Source: an uncultured Gemmatimonadales bacterium
Lineage (GTDB): Bacteria > Gemmatimonadota > Gemmatimonadetes > Gemmatimonadales > GWC2-71-9
Assembly (NCBI GenBank): GCA_963771275.1
Contig: CAVYSW010000003.1
Location: 1,376,001-1,440,000, forward strand
Reading direction: 5' to 3'
Length of the DNA: 64,000 nucleotides
The notes under the pieces are model-generated. The model was not told where the DNA came from. It saw nothing but the letters and a program-made list of their open reading frames with translations, and ran no database searches. Positions 49,716 through 57,509 of the stretch are shown here, in pieces. Each line of letters starts with the position of its first letter. Within the stretch, counting starts at the first letter, position 1. A program made the position numbers and the translations under genes.

Positions 49716-50065
49716 GAGCCGGCCACCTCGTACTTCCGGGTGCCGGGAACAAGGTGAATGCAGCGGGCTCAGCCGTGTTCGTGCAGCGTGCTGCGGGTAG
49801 CCCCAGTCCCGGGCTGCCCGCGCTCGGCCAAGGACCGCGTCCTGAAGGACGCAGCCCACGCGGAGTCACTGGCGTCTCACTCCCTGGCCGGGTTCAGTCC
49901 TTTCAGGCCGGGACTGCCCCGGTCCAGGATGCCGATCGCGTAGTCGCTTGAGATGAGACGATGCTAATCCGGAGTTAACGAGGGCTTCATCCCCCCCCCC
50001 CTGAGATTGGTCGCGATCGCCAACCGCCGGAGAGCACTTCGCAACGGCGTCGGCAAGGAGGTGTC

Positions 50066-51043
50066 ATGAGAAGGATCGCGACCGTCGGACTGATCGCAGC
50101 GGGACTGCTTCTGGCCTGTGAGCCACGTCTGTCGGCACCACCCACCGAGCTCGTCGTCCAACCCTTGTGCCAGATCGGGTGCGTGGAGGACGGCCCCTAC
50201 CCGGAGGCACCCGGCGTGTTCCTGGGCAGCGGCGTTACGCCGGAGCAGTGTTTCTATTTCGGTACGGACGCGGACAGCGACGAACTCTCCGACTTCTGCG
50301 AGAAGCAGCTCATGTTCGCGTTTAACCCTGAGCTCCGATACTACCACTTGGACTACGTCGATCGCGAACCATACTGGGCTGCTGGGCCCACGGGCAGCGC
50401 GGATGATCCGATTCGCATCGTCTATCTCCTCTCCTACTACCGTGACAACGGCAGCGACGCCTGGGTGTGTTCATTGCCTTTCGCACCCAGCAGCTGTCAC
50501 GGACACAACGGTGACTCAGAGGTTGTGGCATTTGACGTGTACTACGATGCGGTCCATGAGCACTGGGTAATGCATGCAGCCTACTACTCTCAACACAACG
50601 ACCTTCGCGTCGCTAGCCGGGAGGGGGCCGACGCCTTTCCCCGGAGGGTCAGGTACGGAACCCCCACTCACTATACGTGGTACTCCCTTCAGTACCCCGA
50701 ACACCCTGGCAGTTACCTGCGCGTGTACGTCTCAGAGGGAAAGCACGCGAACTACTTCTCGACCAGTGACTGCGAAACGGGTGGCGCGTTTCAGACCGAC
50801 ACGTGTGCACATGTCGATACTTCGGTGCGGGGTGTCATGGCGAACGTCTGGAACATAGGTAGCCGGCAGGACCAGCTCATCAACTGCGTTGAGGCACGCA
50901 GCACGGCTCATCCCTACTATGGAAGCCACAGAGCGGAGTGCTACTGGACTCCGGGGTCGAATTTCCGCGGGTGGTTTCCACCCGACGTGGGTGGTGATGA
51001 GGCCGACCCTTACGACGTTGTTCTAACCGCGCTCGATTTCTAG
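50066..51043 (+). CDS. Cys-rich lipoprotein with NPP1/Vps62-like motifs
   Basis: AAGGAGG RBS, LLAC lipobox, GHNGDSE, YYSQH, VYVSEGKHANY. Confidence 0.75.
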   Translation: MRRIATVGLIAAGLLLACEPRLSAPPTELVVQPLCQIGCVEDGPYPEAPGVFLGSGVTPEQCFYFGTDADSDELSDFCEKQLMFAFNPELRYYHLDYVDREPYWAAGPTGSADDPIRIVYLLSYYRDNGSDAWVCSLPFAPSSCHGHNGDSEVVAFDVYYDAVHEHWVMHAAYYSQHNDLRVASREGADAFPRRVRYGTPTHYTWYSLQYPEHPGSYLRVYVSEGKHANYFSTSDCETGGAFQTDTCAHVDTSVRGVMANVWNIGSRQDQLINCVEARSTAHPYYGSHRAECYWTPGSNFRGWFPPDVGGDEADPYDVVLTALDF

Positions 51044-51073
51044 ACCGTATGGTCCGTGGATGAACGGGCGGGT

Positions 51074-51586
51074 ATGAGACTTCCGGCGTGCCTACTGATT
51101 GCCGCGCTGCTCGGCGCCTGGAAGACCGCTGCACCCCAAGGGCCGCGAGGGCCCGCGTACCCGCCGTGGGTTCGCGCCGCGGTGCCGAACGTGGGACCAC
51201 AGCTTAACAGCCTGACGCTACTCTATCTGGGACCGCCGGCTCAATCGAGCCGAGCCGGCGGCTGCGCGTTGGCTCAACTCAGTCTCGGCCTGGCGGGGAT
51301 GGTCCTGGGCGGTGGCGGCACCGCCGCTGTGAGTGACGGCGCGGGGCCTCCCCTCGTCGCCGCCGGTGTGGGGGTGGTGGGAGGGCTCATGCTCGGTTCC
51401 TACGCCAGCCGCTGCCATGTCTCGGTGTGGGGTGCGGCAGGCGGGGCCGCGCTCGGAGTGTTGATCGGTGCCACGTTGGGCAAGGCGTTCGCGGAAACTC
51501 GGAGCGAGCGGGACGACTCGAATCTGGCAGCCGCGTACGTGGTAATGCTGCCGCTCGCTTGGTTCGGCGCACAGCTCGGACGCTGA
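51074..51586 (+). CDS. Hypothetical Gly-rich membrane protein
   Basis: Signal-like N-terminus and several glycine-zipper-like hydrophobic helices. Confidence 0.6.
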   Translation: MRLPACLLIAALLGAWKTAAPQGPRGPAYPPWVRAAVPNVGPQLNSLTLLYLGPPAQSSRAGGCALAQLSLGLAGMVLGGGGTAAVSDGAGPPLVAAGVGVVGGLMLGSYASRCHVSVWGAAGGAALGVLIGATLGKAFAETRSERDDSNLAAAYVVMLPLAWFGAQLGR

Positions 51587-51593
51587 GCCCCGG

Positions 51594-51628
51594 TGCACGC
51601 TGGACGCTGCACGCTGCACGCTGCCCGT
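51594..51628. repeat. Short 7-nt tandem repeat (TGCACGC) x5, degenerate
   Basis: tgcacgc tggacgc tgcacgc tgcacgc tgcccgt. Confidence 0.7.
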
Positions 51629-51637
51629 AGCTCCACC

Positions 51638-51690
51638 TTCACCACACGCGCGCCCCCGCCGCGCGCTCCAGCTCGTAGCGGCTCCGCACG
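51638..51690. repeat. 53-bp direct repeat, copy of the tolC 3' end
   Basis: Identical to 53325-53377. Confidence 0.95.
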
Positions 51691-51691
51691 G

Positions 51692-53332
51692 CTACGGGCG
51701 GTCGCGAGACGGGGCCGCGGGCAGCGCCGCGCGCAGCACGTCGCCGTCGAGCGCGCCGCTCGGCGTCACCCCGATCGCGGCGGCGATGGTCGGCGCCATG
51801 TCCACGACCCGGACCGGATCGGGGTAGCGACCCGGCCGGAACGGCGGACCGTAGAACACCACCGGAACGTGCGTGTCGTAGTCATGGGGCCCGCCGTGCT
51901 GGGCGTCGGCGGCGCGGCCCCACACCCAGTGCGGCTGGAGCGTCACGACGGCCTCGATCGGGAGATCGGGCGGCAGCGCGTGGTACCAGCGGCGCGCGAT
52001 CGCATCGTGGACGGTGTCGGCTCGCGAGAGGTCGGCCAGGCGATCCACGCGGGCGACGCCTGGCACGCGCCGCGCGAGGTCGGCGAACGCCGCGACCAGC
52101 GAGTCCACGTCCACCCCTGCGGCACGCAGCGAAGCCCGGTCCACCCACAGCGTGTTGCTCTCGATCCGAAACGCTCCGGCGGGAACCCCCCGCGCGGCGA
52201 GCCCGTCGCGGATGGTGGTGATCGGTTGCCGCAGGCTCGCGTGGCCGGTGGAGCCGCCCGTGCGGGCGGCGTACAGCTCGGGAAATGGTCCGACGCCATG
52301 GTCCCCGGTGAGCGCGATCACGATGCGCGCCGAATCCCGCAGCCGGTAGAGCGAGTCGATGAAGGCGCCGAGTGCGCGGTCCAGCCGCAGAATCTGATCG
52401 TGGATCTCGCGGGAGTCGGGCCCGTATCGGTGCCCGACCGCGTCGGTGCTCGAGAGCGAGATCGCGAGCAGGTCGGTGGCGGGCCCGTGGCCGAGTCCCA
52501 TCGCCTCGACGCCTGCGAGCGCGAAGTCGAGCGTGATCTGATCCATCCAGGGGTACTGGATCACGTCCCGGGCCGCCCGCGCGGAATCCGCCGCGAGCAC
52601 GTGCGGAAACACGAAGTTCCGCCCGCCGCCTTCGATGGGTACGGAGTCGGGCTCGGGATAGGCGCTGTCGGGTCGCAACAGTGTCCAGGCGCGGCCCGCG
52701 GAGCGCTGCGGCAGGCGGCGGGCGTTGAACGCCCGAACCCAGGCCGGCAGCGTGTCCATGTAATACGTGCTGGTCGTGAACGGCCCATCCGGCTCCGCGT
52801 ACCAGAACACGGCGGCGCGCGCCCGGCCGAGCGGCAGGATCGCCGCGCGGTCCTTGCGCGACACCGAGAGCGCGCGGGCCGCGGGGTGATGGGCCCGGAT
52901 CCAGTCGATCAGAGTCGTGCCGCGAAACCGCCACGGGGACGCGCCCGGGCCCTGCGCTCCGAGCAGTGGGGCGGCGGAGTCGGGCACGCCACGCTCGTTC
53001 GACACGATGCCGGTGTGACGCGGGAAGCGACCGGAGAGCACCGTGGCGTGGCCCACCGCGGTCTCCGTGTTCGCGTAGTCGAGATCGCCGTCCGTGAACC
53101 ACGCGCCGCCCCGGATCAGACGCCCCAGCCCGCCCGTGAGCTGCGGCGCGAAGCGCGGCAGGTAGTCGGCCCGCATCTGGTCCACCGTGACGAACACGAC
53201 GAGCGTGGTCGGGGTCGGCGGAGACGGGAGCGGCACGGGCGCAGCCCCCGCGACGAGAGCCCCCGCGAGGAGCGGGGCGAATCTCAGCTGACGGCGGATC
53301 GCGCCGGTCGCCACCGTCGCCGCGTTCACCAC
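51692..53332 (-). CDS. Alkaline phosphatase superfamily protein (PafA-like, Thr nucleophile)
   Basis: VDQMRADY, TETAVGHAT, SSTDAVGHRYGP, TGDHG, QHGGPHDYD. Confidence 0.9.
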   Translation of the reverse strand: MVNAATVATGAIRRQLRFAPLLAGALVAGAAPVPLPSPPTPTTLVVFVTVDQMRADYLPRFAPQLTGGLGRLIRGGAWFTDGDLDYANTETAVGHATVLSGRFPRHTGIVSNERGVPDSAAPLLGAQGPGASPWRFRGTTLIDWIRAHHPAARALSVSRKDRAAILPLGRARAAVFWYAEPDGPFTTSTYYMDTLPAWVRAFNARRLPQRSAGRAWTLLRPDSAYPEPDSVPIEGGGRNFVFPHVLAADSARAARDVIQYPWMDQITLDFALAGVEAMGLGHGPATDLLAISLSSTDAVGHRYGPDSREIHDQILRLDRALGAFIDSLYRLRDSARIVIALTGDHGVGPFPELYAARTGGSTGHASLRQPITTIRDGLAARGVPAGAFRIESNTLWVDRASLRAAGVDVDSLVAAFADLARRVPGVARVDRLADLSRADTVHDAIARRWYHALPPDLPIEAVVTLQPHWVWGRAADAQHGGPHDYDTHVPVVFYGPPFRPGRYPDPVRVVDMAPTIAAAIGVTPSGALDGDVLRAALPAAPSRDRP

Positions 53333-53377
53333 ACGCGCGCCCCCGCCGCGCGCTCCAGCTCGTAGCGGCTCCGCACG
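53325..53377. repeat. 53-bp direct repeat, within the tolC 3' end
   Basis: Identical to 51638-51690. Confidence 0.95.
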
Positions 53378-54636
53378 ACATCGTACTGCGCGCGCAGCCG
53401 CATCAGCCGCGCCTCCTGGAGCGACGTCTGCGCGTCGAGCACATCGAGGTTGGTGATGACGCCGGCCTCGTAGCGCACGTCCGCCATGGAAACTGCCGCC
53501 TCCGCCTGCCGCACCTGGAGGTCGGACGTCGCCAGCTTCTGCACACCAGCCTGCACGTCCGCGATGGCCTGCCGCACCTCCGTGGCGATGCGCCGCTCGA
53601 CGTCGCGCGTGTGGTCCTGCGCGGCCGCGGCCGCCGCCTGCGTCTCCGCCACCTGATTCCGGGTGCGGAACCCGTTGAACACCGGGACCCGAACTTGCAC
53701 GCCGGCGTCCCAGTTGCCCTTGATGGTGTTCAGGTTGGGGACGTAGCCGTTCTTGAAGCCGGCCATCACGCCGAGAGCGAGCGACGGCCGGTCACCCAGC
53801 GAGGCGAGCCGGGTCTGGATCGCGGCCGACGCTTCGCCGTCGCGCGAGACCTTGAGCTCGGGCCGCTGCGTCAGGCCGAGTGCCACGAGCGAGTCCACAT
53901 CGAGGGCCGCGGGAGCGTCGACGAACGTGCCCTTGAGGTTGAGTTGCTGGTCGGGCGGGAGGCCCATCAGCCCGCGCAGGCGCACGGTCTGGCGCTCCAG
54001 CGCGTTGGCGAGGTCGATCCGCCGGCTCTGCGCCGTCGCCACTCGCACCTCCGTGGTCAGCACCTCGAAGTCGGTGGCGCTCCCGGTGAGGAGCTTCTCG
54101 CGGGTCACCGCGAGGTGGCGTTCGAGCGCGGCGATCTGGTCGTCCTGCACGTCCAGGCTCCGTTCCAGGAAGATGATCGCGTAGAACGTGTCGATGGCCT
54201 CGAAGGCGAGCCCCGCCTGGACGATCTCCACGGTGTGATCGGCCGCCTGCTCGAGCGACTGCGCGTAGTCCACCGCGGTCGAGCGGCGCCCGAAATCGAA
54301 CACCGTGTGGCGCAGCGACAGGTGGGCGTCGTAGTTGTTGGCCGGGTACAGGTCGAACGGTCCCAGGCCCTGCAGGTCGATGCTCGCGACCGGCTCGAGT
54401 CGCGCGTACGAGCCGTCCGCCTCGATCTCCGGGTAGTAGGCGCTCCGGCTGCCGAGCACGCGCGCCTGCGACGCGCGCACGCCCTGCGCCGCCTGCTGGA
54501 CCGCGGGGTGGGTTTCGATCACCCGCCGGATCACGGCGTCCAGCGAGAGCGAGTCGGCCCCCTGCGGCTGTGACGCCGGGGAGGAGGCGGACAGGGCCGA
54601 CAGGAAGATCAGAGAGGCGAAGGACATGACATTCAT
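53326..54636 (-). CDS. TolC family outer membrane efflux protein
   Basis: Signal peptide, two OEP repeats (YYPEI...VFDFGRR; PVFNGFR...RYEAGVITNLDVLDAQ). Confidence 0.92.
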   Translation of the reverse strand: MNVMSFASLIFLSALSASSPASQPQGADSLSLDAVIRRVIETHPAVQQAAQGVRASQARVLGSRSAYYPEIEADGSYARLEPVASIDLQGLGPFDLYPANNYDAHLSLRHTVFDFGRRSTAVDYAQSLEQAADHTVEIVQAGLAFEAIDTFYAIIFLERSLDVQDDQIAALERHLAVTREKLLTGSATDFEVLTTEVRVATAQSRRIDLANALERQTVRLRGLMGLPPDQQLNLKGTFVDAPAALDVDSLVALGLTQRPELKVSRDGEASAAIQTRLASLGDRPSLALGVMAGFKNGYVPNLNTIKGNWDAGVQVRVPVFNGFRTRNQVAETQAAAAAAQDHTRDVERRIATEVRQAIADVQAGVQKLATSDLQVRQAEAAVSMADVRYEAGVITNLDVLDAQTSLQEARLMRLRAQYDVVRSRYELERAAGARVW

Positions 54637-54665: not shown

Positions 54666-56282
54666 TTACTCGATGGCGGCCGGGGCAGCGGCCCCGCGCC
54701 GGTGGTGGGGACGCAAGAGCAAGGCGGGGACGAGGGCGACGATGAGAATGCCGGCCGCGAGCAGGAATACGTCGGCGATCGCCTGCACGAATGCCTGGCT
54801 CTCGGTAAGCCCCGCCACGAGGGCCTGCGCCTTGGCGGCCGCGGCGGACGCCGTGCCCCCGGTGACCCGCTGGGCGAAGTAGCCCAACCGGGTGACCGTC
54901 TCGCGGAAGGCGTCCGAGTGCGGGTCCAGCTGCTGGCCGTACAGGGCCGCGTGGAAGATGGTGCGCCGCGTGAGGATCATCCCGAAGATCGCCACCCCGA
55001 AGCTGCCGCCGATCTGCCGGATCACGTTCACCAGCCCCGACGCCTGGGCCATCTGGCGATTGGAAATCTCCGAGATCGCGACGGTGGTGAGCGGTGAGAA
55101 CAGCAGGCCCATCGCCACGCCGCGGATGTACAGCGGCATCATGATGGCGGCCTTCTCGGTGAACAGCGAGATGTCGCTGAACCGGTAGAGGCTCAGGGCC
55201 ATCAGAGCCAGCCCCAGGGCGATCGGCACGCGCGCGTCGTACCGGTCGGCGAACATGCCGGCGAACGGGGCGGTGATGCCCAGCAACAACCCCATGGGCA
55301 GGAAGACGAGGCCGGCCTGAAACGGCGTGTAGCCGAGCGAGTCCTGCAGATAAATGGGTAGCAGGAACGTGCTGCCGAACATCCCCAGTCCGAAGATGAA
55401 CAGCACCACGTTGCTGAGTGCGAAATCGAAGTTGCGAAAGAGCGTCATCTGGATCAGCGGGTGACGCACGTTGGCTTCGGCCACGAGGAAGATCACCAGG
55501 CCGGCGAACGCCACGATGAAGCATGTGACGATGAAGCGCGACGTCCAGCCGCCGGTGTTCCACGCGGAGTTGCCGCTGGCCAGGGCGAGGAGCAGCGCCG
55601 TGAGGAACGCGGTGAGTGAAACGAACCCGAGCAAATCGAAGCGGCCGATGTCGGGCACCTTGCGATCCCGCAGAATGACCGCGCCCGCGAAAACGCCCAT
55701 CGCCCCAACCGGGACGTTCACGTCGAAGATCGTGTGCCAGGCGTAGTGGTCGATCAGGTAGCCGCCGACGGTGGGGCCGAGCGAGACCGACGCGGATGCC
55801 GCCACCGACCAGAAGCCGAGCGCGATGCCACGCTTCTCCGGCGGGAACTCGCGCGTGATGATCGCCATGCCGACGGGCATGAGCAGCCCCGCGCCCGCGC
55901 CCTGGAGAATCCGGAACGCGATCAGGGCGTCGATGCTCCACGAGAGGCTGCACAGGAACGAGCCAACGGTGAAGAGGGACAGCCCCATGAGGAACATCGT
56001 CTTGGAGCCCCACCGGTCCGCCAGCCAGCCGGAGGTCGGCAGGATCACGCCGAACACCAGCAGGTAGGCCGTGAGAATCCACTCCACGCGATCGACCGAG
56101 ACCCCGAAGGCCGCCATCATCTTCGGCAGCGCCACGTTGACGATCGTGGAGTCGAGCACGGCCATGAACGTGCCGATCATCACGGCGGCGAGGACCAGCC
56201 AGCGGTAAGTCGGGTGCTGGGGGTTCAGGGCGGGGAACTGCTCGACGAGCCGCTGCCGGGCAGCGGTCCACGGGCGCGGCAT
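54666..56282 (-). CDS. DHA2 family MFS efflux permease (EmrB-like)
   Basis: FMAVLDSTIVNVALP, GWLADRWG, FRILQGAG, ASGLVNVIRQIGGSFG. Confidence 0.93.
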   Translation of the reverse strand: MPRPWTAARQRLVEQFPALNPQHPTYRWLVLAAVMIGTFMAVLDSTIVNVALPKMMAAFGVSVDRVEWILTAYLLVFGVILPTSGWLADRWGSKTMFLMGLSLFTVGSFLCSLSWSIDALIAFRILQGAGAGLLMPVGMAIITREFPPEKRGIALGFWSVAASASVSLGPTVGGYLIDHYAWHTIFDVNVPVGAMGVFAGAVILRDRKVPDIGRFDLLGFVSLTAFLTALLLALASGNSAWNTGGWTSRFIVTCFIVAFAGLVIFLVAEANVRHPLIQMTLFRNFDFALSNVVLFIFGLGMFGSTFLLPIYLQDSLGYTPFQAGLVFLPMGLLLGITAPFAGMFADRYDARVPIALGLALMALSLYRFSDISLFTEKAAIMMPLYIRGVAMGLLFSPLTTVAISEISNRQMAQASGLVNVIRQIGGSFGVAIFGMILTRRTIFHAALYGQQLDPHSDAFRETVTRLGYFAQRVTGGTASAAAAKAQALVAGLTESQAFVQAIADVFLLAAGILIVALVPALLLRPHHRRGAAAPAAIE

Positions 56283-57293
56283 TTACCGCTCCTGCCCCCT
56301 GATGCTCACCTCCACCGACAGCCCCGGAACGAGCATCACCGGATCTCCCGTCCCCGGACCCGGACGTTCGATCGCGATCCGGACGGGCACCCGCTGGGTG
56401 ACCTTGGTGAAATTGCCCGATGCGTTGTCCGGCGGGATCAGGGAGAACTGCGAAGCGGCGGCCGAGCCGATCCACAACACGGTGCCCACGAGCGCGCGGC
56501 CGGGGTAGGCGTCCACCGCGATTGCCACCCGGTCGCCGGCGTGAATCCGGCCGATCTTGGTCTCCTCGAAGTTCGCGGTGACCCAGAGGTCGGCGAGGTC
56601 GTAGAGCGCGAAGATCGGCTGCCCCGGCTGCACCACGTCACCCGGCAGCACCCAGCGCCGCGCCACGACCCCGGTGAGCGGCGCGGTGATCCGCGTGTTG
56701 GTGAGCTGCGTCTCGATGACCTGGAGCTGCGCCCGCGCCGTCTGCACCTGCGCCAACGCGATGCGCTGGCGCGCCTCGGCCATGTCGAGCGCCGTCTTCG
56801 CGTGATCGTACTGCTCCTGGGGGATCACCTTGCCACGGAGCTGCGTGGCCGCGCGCTCGAAGTCGTCGCGCGCGCGCTGCCCCTCGACCGCGGACAGCTG
56901 CACGTTCTCCCGCGCGAGCGCGAGGCCCGACTGGGCCTGGACCTCCTGGGCGCGCAGATCCGCGTCGTCGAGCCGAACCAGCAGCTGGCCCTCCTGCACC
57001 GTGTCCCCTTCGTCCGTCCCCAGCTCCACGATGCGGCCCAGTATCTTGGTGGCGACGGAAACGCGGTCGCCGTCGATGTAGGCGTCGTCCGTCGCGATCA
57101 CGCCCCGGACCCTGACGTACCAGTAGGCCGCGCCCGCAATGCCGAGGACCACGAGGAGGAGGAGTGGGAACACCACGCTGCGACGGTGGTGCAGGGGACC
57201 GCGGTCCCGCGGTGCGTCAGGTGGAGCCTGCTGTGAGACCAGAGGCGGGGACCCCGGTTGCCGGGCCCCAGCCGACGTTGGCCGATCTTCCAT
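56283..57293 (-). CDS. HlyD/EmrA family adaptor protein
   Basis: TDDAYIDG, ANFEET, FSLIPPDNASGNFTKVTQRVPVRI; likely start at 57293. Confidence 0.93.
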   Translation of the reverse strand: MEDRPTSAGARQPGSPPLVSQQAPPDAPRDRGPLHHRRSVVFPLLLLVVLGIAGAAYWYVRVRGVIATDDAYIDGDRVSVATKILGRIVELGTDEGDTVQEGQLLVRLDDADLRAQEVQAQSGLALARENVQLSAVEGQRARDDFERAATQLRGKVIPQEQYDHAKTALDMAEARQRIALAQVQTARAQLQVIETQLTNTRITAPLTGVVARRWVLPGDVVQPGQPIFALYDLADLWVTANFEETKIGRIHAGDRVAIAVDAYPGRALVGTVLWIGSAAASQFSLIPPDNASGNFTKVTQRVPVRIAIERPGPGTGDPVMLVPGLSVEVSIRGQER

Positions 57294-57509
57294 GTATGAC
57301 TGCGGCTTCCTGGGCGGGAACCAGTGTGGGGTCCCGCCCCTGCGATGTCCGGAACACATGGCGCCAGCTTGGCTGACGCCTTGAACTGTACCCCTCCGGT
57401 CGGGAATCGGGTAAGGGGGAGGAGCGCTCGACCTGGTCACGCGTCGACGCCGGTAGCGGCAACCCGCCCCGGCTGCCATGTTAGCCGCGGCTTCCCATGA
57501 GGGGCGAAC

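Follow-up and report, generated by a model that had tools for sequence, protein, structure and literature searches.

In the genome of an uncultured Gemmatimonadales bacterium, a gene for a PafA-like alkaline phosphatase is bracketed by two identical copies of the 3′ end of tolC, the gene directly upstream of it. The genome (assembly GCA_963771275.1) comprises 3,860,783 bases on 11 contigs, with 70% G+C, and the window considered here is a 64,000-nt stretch of it (CAVYSW010000003.1, in our numbering contig C3:1376001-1440000), lying within a contig of 1.88 Mb; positions are those of the window unless a contig is named. The linkage between tolC and the phosphatase gene appears to be old, and we give about an even chance to the reading that the copy behind the phosphatase gene arose as an orphan of the tolC 3′ end, without the phosphatase gene being a self-mobile cassette. 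The repeat itself, the genes at the locus, their linkage in relatives, and variant alleles in public sequencing runs were observed; the direction and the mechanism of the join are what we infer.

A perfect duplication of the tolC end brackets a single gene

The two copies (designated R1 and R2) and the gene between them are arranged as follows.

53325..53377, minus strand: R1, the resident tolC tail (its last 16 codons with the TGA stop and 1 nt more), within which GTG start candidates of the phosphatase gene are located
51692..53332, minus strand: PafA-like alkaline phosphatase (PF01663) gene, 546 codons when counted from the GTG at 53332
51638..51690, minus strand: R2, a tolC tail copy that is presumed to be orphaned and is non-coding in this position, starting 1 nt past the phosphatase stop

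R1 and R2 are direct repeats identical at 53/53 nt, with a start-to-start spacing of 1687 nt; when the match is extended by the next five bases, identity is 56/58. An exact match of 53 nt is beyond what chance gives and cannot be chance. The full repeat was found exactly twice in the genome, and the same count was obtained for each 20-mer taken from it in steps of 3 nt. Read on the minus strand (53377 to 53325), R1 encodes the last 16 codons of TolC (VRSRYELERAAGARVW), followed by TGA at 53328-53326 and one further base. The stop codon of the phosphatase gene occupies 51694-51692, and a single base (51691) separates it from R2 (51690 to 51638). The original prediction, made from the letters of the window, had described a perfect 53-bp duplication of which one copy encodes the last ~16 residues of TolC, the stop, and the phosphatase start, and of which the other begins 1 nt after the phosphatase stop; all of this was borne out by the alignment and the reading frames. 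So was its statement that recombination between the repeats would leave tolC intact, the simulated product specifying a TolC that is the same letter for letter.

The phosphatase gene is the sole Pfam-recognizable gene in the 1687-bp unit; four alternative open reading frames (ORFs) gave no Pfam hit at E ≤ 0.01. No recombinase or mobility gene was found among the window ORFs scanned with Pfam (∼33-64 kb), and none of the five PF00589 matches of the genome falls within the window, the closest being ∼300 kb away. The claim that the unit holds one gene and neither integrase nor transposase thus agreed with the Pfam searches of the unit, its alternative ORFs, and its neighbors.

When the whole genome was scanned for exact repeats in isolated pairs (k = 28; at least 35 nt long; at most 10 kb apart; no other run within 5 kb), 11 pairs were listed, of which R1/R2 is the second longest. 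As a control, the scan contained a 43-nt 3′ part of a tRNA-Ala gene with an exact copy 8,065 bp from that gene (contig C6:118766-126873; locus L060, 1767-9874). The distal copy adjoins the gene for a 457-aa tyrosine integrase with PF00589 (E = 2.5e-18) and an Arm-DNA-binding domain; the locus is a classical integrated island, the other genes of which are unannotated. Because this island was recovered, the repeat-pair scan does detect classical integrated islands. The search for other genes flanked by the tails of upstream genes, which had been proposed along with the original prediction, was made among these pairs: besides R1/R2 and the tRNA island, no such case was shown, ORFs having been inspected at two further pairs (contigs C2 and C10), where Pfam gave no hit on four of them. 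The longest isolated pair is a 314-nt exact direct repeat at C9:185189-185502 and 190485-190798, 5,296 bp apart (locus L063).

The phosphatase gene and its linkage to tolC

The phosphatase gene is the last gene of an efflux operon with EmrA-like, major facilitator superfamily (MFS), and TolC genes, all on the minus strand. The three genes ahead of it are listed in the order of transcription.

56283..57479, minus strand: EmrA/HlyD-type periplasmic adaptor gene (TIGR00998, E = 2.8e-60, under the cut-off of this model)
54666..56282, minus strand: gene for an MFS transporter of 538 aa, in the middle of the efflux operon (PF07690, E = 1.8e-59; 77% identity to the same-genus genome G003)
53326..54636, minus strand: TolC-family outer-membrane channel gene, 436 aa (PF02321, E = 4.8e-54)

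The start of the phosphatase gene overlaps the tolC stop (GTGA). Candidate GTG starts are found at 53332 and 53329, both in R1, and at 53314, just outside it; in the public record, the protein has 545 aa and starts at 53329. It matches PF01663 (E = 8.2e-31; 108.3 bits with a cut-off of 23), and its closest characterized relative is PafA (PDB 5TJ3; E = 3.8e-53, residues 38-529). It thus resembles PafA over the full length and exceeds the PF01663 cut-off, but its score with the PafA equivalog of NCBIfam (NF042991; E = 1.7e-84) is 284 bits, below the cut-off of 650 bits, and the activity of the protein is predicted from its sequence. The G+C content at third codon positions (GC3) is 0.90 for the phosphatase gene and 0.94, 0.93, and 0.87 for the operon genes, compared with 0.75 and 0.72 for d176 and d325, two genes beyond R2. 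The codon composition of the phosphatase gene is host-like, matching that of the operon rather than that of the genes beyond R2. No promoter-like or terminator-like sites were found in 51000-54000.

Homologues of TolC and of the phosphatase with 78-86% identity travel together in four lineages, as judged by members of the TolC and phosphatase clusters on contigs of identical nucleotide count.

Contigs of 6673 and 33199 nt: TolC 85%, phosphatase 86%
Contig of 6928 nt: TolC 81%, phosphatase 81%
Contig of 32639 nt: TolC 79%, phosphatase 86%
Contig of 164471 nt: TolC 78%, phosphatase 81%

The 86% identical phosphatases (4/4 members) begin (V/M)KATTVPTDSVRRHVRF, compared with VNAATVATGAIRRQLRF here, and align with it residue for residue; other relatives of 79-86% identity have ordinary, different signal peptides. 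From the overlap TGG-TGA-A, a GTG followed by AAR is predicted, and the N-termini of the 86% identical phosphatases are as expected if these, too, start in the tolC stop overlap. At the C-terminus, the protein (…RAALPAAPSRDRP) shows homology to its relatives (…RAALRAAPALDRR and …KAALRTAPSSDRQ), and therefore, the phosphatase gene is complete up to the junction. The junction of tolC stop and phosphatase start appears to be native, and the linkage old. In the original prediction, the phosphatase gene had been taken for a recently arrived, self-contained cassette. This part was not sustained: the linkage in relatives, the conserved N-terminus, a GC3 of 0.90, the uniqueness of the repeat, and the distance of ∼300 kb to the nearest tyrosine recombinase match all speak against it.

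In the wider order, the phosphatase is present in 35/41 genomes at E ≤ 0.001, in 29 of these at E ≤ 1e-70 (the tally takes in the unpublished genome G020). The tolC operon described here is rare, being found in 2/41 genomes (E ≤ 1e-40) and in 2/301 genomes of the family (E ≤ 1e-90). In the only other genome with this tolC (G003; 66% identity), tolC is followed by tandem 9-nt units (GGTCCGCCG-type) and by a pfk-like gene in convergent orientation, and no phosphatase gene is found there (locus L014, 2860-2935). A TolC search of genome contigs returned only relatives of 38-47% identity, and a degenerate pattern of the tail peptide, scanned once each, matched 12 metagenome and 15 genome loci, none of which was related by blastn or tblastn. 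The synteny around the phosphatase gene is not conserved among 11 relatives, and an old empty site was not found in this genome; the context of the phosphatase locus in G009 maps to contig C6 here.

Age of the tail copy

The seventh residue from the end of TolC is Ala here (GCG; …ERAAGARVW), in both copies of the tail (53344-53346 and 51657-51659). In 16/16 orthologues inspected (63-99% identical, including the 99% identical allele from public run X1), the same residue is Val or Leu, and in 0/16 is it Ala. As both copies carry the derived Ala, either the duplication is later than that substitution or the copies have been homogenized since. This points to R2 being the young part of the locus and to a recent duplication or last gene conversion.

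Alleles in public runs

The sequences compared in this section comprise the flank beyond R2, where the tail copy is followed by a spacer (counted as 10 nt or as 16-18 nt), then a heptamer array, and then d176, as well as two copies of a 10-nt sequence close to the end of the phosphatase gene.

51056..51586, plus strand: d176, gene for a small glycine-rich protein, convergent with the operon; flank joined to R2
51594..51627, no strand assigned: heptamer array of the GCTGCAC type, member of a dispersed intergenic repeat family
51657..51666, minus strand: 10-nt GCGCGCGGCG in R2, one end of a 68-bp deletion
51725..51734, minus strand: 10-nt GCGCGCGGCG in the 3′ end of the phosphatase gene, at the R-A-A codons, where the 68-bp deletion has its second end

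Logan contigs served as the evidence from public runs; stretches of runs X2, X3, and X5 that have no cover do not show absence. Logan contigs come from a 31-mer graph, and a 53-nt repeat collapses in such a graph. All four repeat junctions recur in contigs from other studies, both inner junctions in X5 and both outer junctions in X2; thus, the structure is not peculiar to this assembly.

Runs X1 and X3, which belong to two studies, lack 51657-51724, a deletion of 68 bp between the two copies of GCGCGCGGCG. The deletion removes the native stop of the phosphatase gene and fuses it in frame to the tail copy, and the protein called on the X1 contig (P0243) ends …LRAAGARVW, matching the simulated deletion. 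In the upstream direction, the X1 phosphatase contig agrees with the window only to 53372, from where 3.9 kb of unlike sequence follow, and its phosphatase carries a 13-residue N-terminal extension unlike the frame here. When the present genome was searched for a motif specific to this X1 flank, no relevant match emerged. The tolC gene of X1 (99% identical) is located on a separate contig, with a complete tail containing the ancestral Val, six other bases, and a heptamer array. As the tolC tail and the heptamers recur there, the stretch from R2 through the spacer to the heptamers has the appearance of a genuine 3′ flank of tolC. X3 carries the same variant letters as X1. Compared with this genome, the differences in X1 are concentrated in 53132-53548, to either side of the tail, with none in 52737-53131 or 53549-54200, a pattern that looks like an imported allele.

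In X2 (99.8% identical), one contig contains the d176 flank, a single repeat copy, and tolC, skipping exactly 1687 nt, possibly as a graph artifact; 51712-52053 is uncovered in this run. In X5 (depth ∼4), one contig contains the phosphatase start, the repeat, and the phosphatase end, which equals a circle or tandem junction; the outer junctions are uncovered. The walks in X2 and X5 are what a collapsed repeat gives with the other edges missing, and they show the junctions outside the assembly but are no proof of excision. The idea of an excisable or amplifiable unit fared unevenly: contigs equal to the empty site and to the circle junction do exist, but both may be artifacts of the k-mer graph. 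The locus is structurally polymorphic in nature.

Origin of the second copy

How an orphaned tolC tail might have arisen can be outlined from two arrangements in the clade. In one, the PafA-like phosphatase gene would stand natively behind tolC, its GTG start overlapping the tolC stop; in the other, the tolC tail would be followed by a short spacer, the heptamer array, and d176. The latter, without the phosphatase gene, plausibly exists in the clade: a 75% identical TolC (P0010) and a 68% identical d176 homologue (P0252) share a contig size of 42979 nt, which none of the 120 phosphatase clusters listed has. The X2 contig with its single repeat copy and the heptamers behind tolC in X1 point in the same direction. 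In this lineage, a segment of tolC tail and phosphatase gene would have been placed ahead of a tolC tail that kept its own downstream flank. For this, a single homologous exchange, in tolC or in the tail, would be needed together with one illegitimate join, 1 nt past the phosphatase stop and 53 nt before the tolC end. The join could stem from one-sided (homology-facilitated illegitimate) recombination of imported DNA or from single-crossover integration of a circularized fragment, and the repeats may now act as substrates for more rearrangement. When two such arrangements are joined, the repeat ends where they cease to be alike (TGA plus 1 nt). An orphaned tail thus calls for no recombinase and for only one novel junction, at the following position.

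51690..51692, minus strand: putative sole junction without a native counterpart, namely, phosphatase TAG, C, and the first base of R2 (…CCCGTAGC/CGTGCGG…)

Judged from this genome alone, the junction shows no microhomology.

Several points weigh against this explanation. The adjacency of the two genes in relatives of 75-87% identity was deduced from equal contig sizes and N-terminal homology, and on the 6928-nt contig, the phosphatase (P0261, 355 aa) is truncated at its N-terminus. TolC was found within ∼1.5 kb in 0/11 loci of relatives with 46-66% identical phosphatases, so the linkage is limited to a close clade. The identity of R1 and R2 requires a donor from the same lineage or later gene conversion. 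The empty-site contig of X2 may be a graph artifact, the phosphatase contigs in that run having equal depth (13.9 versus 12.6). A perfect 9-bp inverted repeat surrounds R2 plus 6 nt (GCCCGTAGC at 51699-51691, which contains the phosphatase stop codon, and GCTACGGGC at 51631-51623); the background of such a configuration in the genome is 1.1e-3 (225/200,000 random placements, the configuration having been found post hoc), and with an orphaned tail, it would be a coincidence. Homology-facilitated illegitimate recombination usually deletes or displaces recipient DNA rather than duplicating it. Furthermore, the process is described as rare in the part of the account by Kirchberger et al (2017; PMC5361080) that was available.

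One alternative is an att-type origin, in which the tolC tail is a hot spot resembling attB, R1 and R2 are the attL and attR sites of an integrase-less unit akin to a cis-mobilizable element (CIME), the recombinase acts in trans, and other elements join the array. Prophages e14 and 21, which integrate in icd, are a comparable case at a gene 3′ end. The 53-nt repeat resembles in size the 43-nt repeat of the tRNA-Ala island with its PF00589 integrase in the same genome. In X1 (and in X3, by the shared variant letters), only 48 nt of the tail stand ahead of the phosphatase gene, preceded by unlike DNA, and tolC with a complete tail is elsewhere; X1 can thus be read as tolC, tail, other DNA, tail copy, phosphatase gene, tail copy, that is, with three tail copies. 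CIMEs and their accretion at gene 3′ ends are on record, as the available portion of Guedon et al (2017; PMC5704250) relates. We nevertheless consider this origin unlikely: neither the repeat nor a sampled 20-mer of it has a copy elsewhere in the genome, no recombinase gene was found among the window ORFs scanned, the cargo is compositionally native, and the junction of tolC and phosphatase gene is a translational-coupling overlap apparently kept in relatives. In addition, the tail copies do not share a first base, R2 starting at index 0 and the X1 copy at about index 5, and the divergence of X1, raised on both sides of the tail (53132-53548), fits ordinary homologous import.

A local 53-nt patch would start from a native order of tolC, phosphatase gene, stem-loop, heptamers, and d176, with templated repair or a replication switch copying the tail from 1.63 kb upstream into the stem-loop. 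This is likewise improbable, despite some merits. The inverted repeat around R2 and the adjoining 6 nt (1.1e-3) would, without the insert, form a 9-bp stem with a 6-nt loop over the stop codon; no second arrangement in the population is required; and an old junction of tolC and phosphatase gene combined with a young R2 is accounted for. The patch demands, however, two illegitimate junctions, neither with visible microhomology, and its end exactly 1 nt past the tolC stop would be by chance. In X1, too, tolC is flanked by the tail and a heptamer array, and RNA folds of both repeat copies and their flanks are no better than those of shuffled sequences (z = 0.83 for the region). No d176 homologue of more than 68% identity was found, and so none from the relatives of 85-86% identity, the phosphatase flank of which at least differs.

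In a broader version of site-specific insertion, the last ∼50 bases of tolC would be a recurrent landing site at which segments are added in series, each closed by a tail copy, as in an integron- or CIME-like array served by a recombinase in trans, and which the phosphatase gene could leave as a 1687-bp circle. To this, we attach little probability.

An assembly artifact, with one true copy and a mis-joined phosphatase gene, is hardly credible. The metagenome-like nature of the genome (11 contigs) calls for general caution, and the k values commonly used by assemblers lie near 53 nt. Against this stand the inner junctions in X5 and the outer ones in X2, in contigs of other studies; the presence of the side comprising phosphatase gene, R2, and d176 also in X1 and X3, there with the 68-bp deletion; the tail peptide at the end of the protein called in X1; and the position of the repeat inside a 1.88-Mb contig.

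Two further candidates were rejected. In integrons, attC sites have the consensus RYYYAAC … GTTRRRY, made of inverse core and core sites, and recombine as a folded bottom strand; an integron gene cassette was dismissed, as there is no GTT on either strand of the repeat and its folds are no better than shuffles. Transposons and insertion sequences make short target duplications (2-14 bp); the duplication here has 53 bp, there is no transposase, and no arms at the unit ends were among the 25 longest inverted pairs listed.

Relation to known systems

The best reading is that the locus belongs with insertions with long target duplication, a kind already described and traced to Nobusato et al (2000), as cited in the part of Furuta, Abe & Kobayashi (2010; PMC2853133) that was available. 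The excerpt reports insertions with target duplications of 30-400 bp and no mobility gene, some of them over a gene 3′ end, by a mechanism that it calls unsolved; in its cases from H. influenzae, the repeats are 46 bp long and reach 15 or 2 bp into a gene end (Furuta et al, 2010; PMC2853133). Shared with the locus here are an insert of less than 20 kb, a direct repeat of more than 30 bp that is unique in the genome, the lack of a mobility gene, and the overlap with a gene 3′ end. In contrast, the published cases, as far as that excerpt goes, were screened for restriction-modification cargo and checked against a sister genome with the empty site (PMC2853133), whereas the cargo here is a phosphatase gene for which relatives show a native linkage with the target gene, and the ambiguous X2 contig is the sole instance of an empty site.

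Displacement by homology-facilitated illegitimate recombination leaves orphan 3′ pieces in the effector-immunity arrays of the V. cholerae type VI secretion system (T6SS) and in Rhs and contact-dependent inhibition (CDI) loci, according to the sections of Kirchberger et al (2017; PMC5361080) at hand. There, as would be the case here, a conserved upstream gene is the homologous anchor, new downstream DNA is joined illegitimately, the resident gene end is pushed downstream, and repeated events give rise to arrays (PMC5361080). Unlike those cases, the orphan here is 53 nt long and non-coding, and transformation with donor DNA is hypothetical here. With CIMEs and accretion, as presented in the excerpted text of Guedon et al (2017; PMC5704250), the locus shares direct repeats that duplicate a gene 3′ end, a gene that remains whole, integrase-less units between att sites, and tandem arrays; it differs in having no remnant of a recombinase or transfer gene, no related element with the repeat, and a cargo that is not foreign.

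Taken as an orphaned tail, the locus would be a clean natural example of how gene ends become duplicated as alternative gene orders recombine, in an uncultured phylum of soil and sediment, and it would extend insertions with long target duplication past restriction-modification cargo. Such a scar drives further change: through the 68-bp microhomology deletion, the phosphatase acquires the five C-terminal residues of TolC, and loss or amplification of the phosphatase gene is possible. The case also cautions that a gene flanked by a duplicated gene tail is not always a mobile cassette. The practical stake is modest, namely, whether what is predicted to be a secreted phosphate-scavenging enzyme may be co-transcribed, gained, or lost together with an efflux pump.

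Surroundings of the locus and other repeats

Arrays of the GCTGCAC heptamer, with GCTACAC-type variants, are found at 22 sites genome-wide; they are intergenic and often form closely spaced inverted pairs (e.g., C9:237450/237477 and C6:175303/175357). In the public runs, these arrays also accounted for many short cross-matches, which came from other loci. The two genes beyond R2, d325 (50066-51043; GC3 0.72) and d176 (51056-51586; GC3 0.75), have no family match and low GC3, and they are flanked by inverted heptamer arrays at 49780-49801 and 51606-51627, which are 82% complementary. The stretch 49780-51627 looks like a small foreign islet within a heptamer hairpin element. Homologues of d176 were found in only two clusters (68% and 58% identity) of a collection of 5.8 billion proteins.

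Other repeats are found on the same contig and beyond it. At 2-11 kb past the end of the window (C3:1442225-1451327), exact repeats of 68 and 73 nt occur in pairs spaced 8,166-8,168 bp apart, which suggests a diverged duplication of ∼1 kb or more. A family of near-identical repeats of 79-90 nt (…GCTTGAAGCTGGCCGGCCCTGTACGTTCAC…), spaced 3-14 kb apart, is present at C3:660-23189 and C7:2418-5704, and a 470-nt exact repeat is present at C3:660 and 13632.

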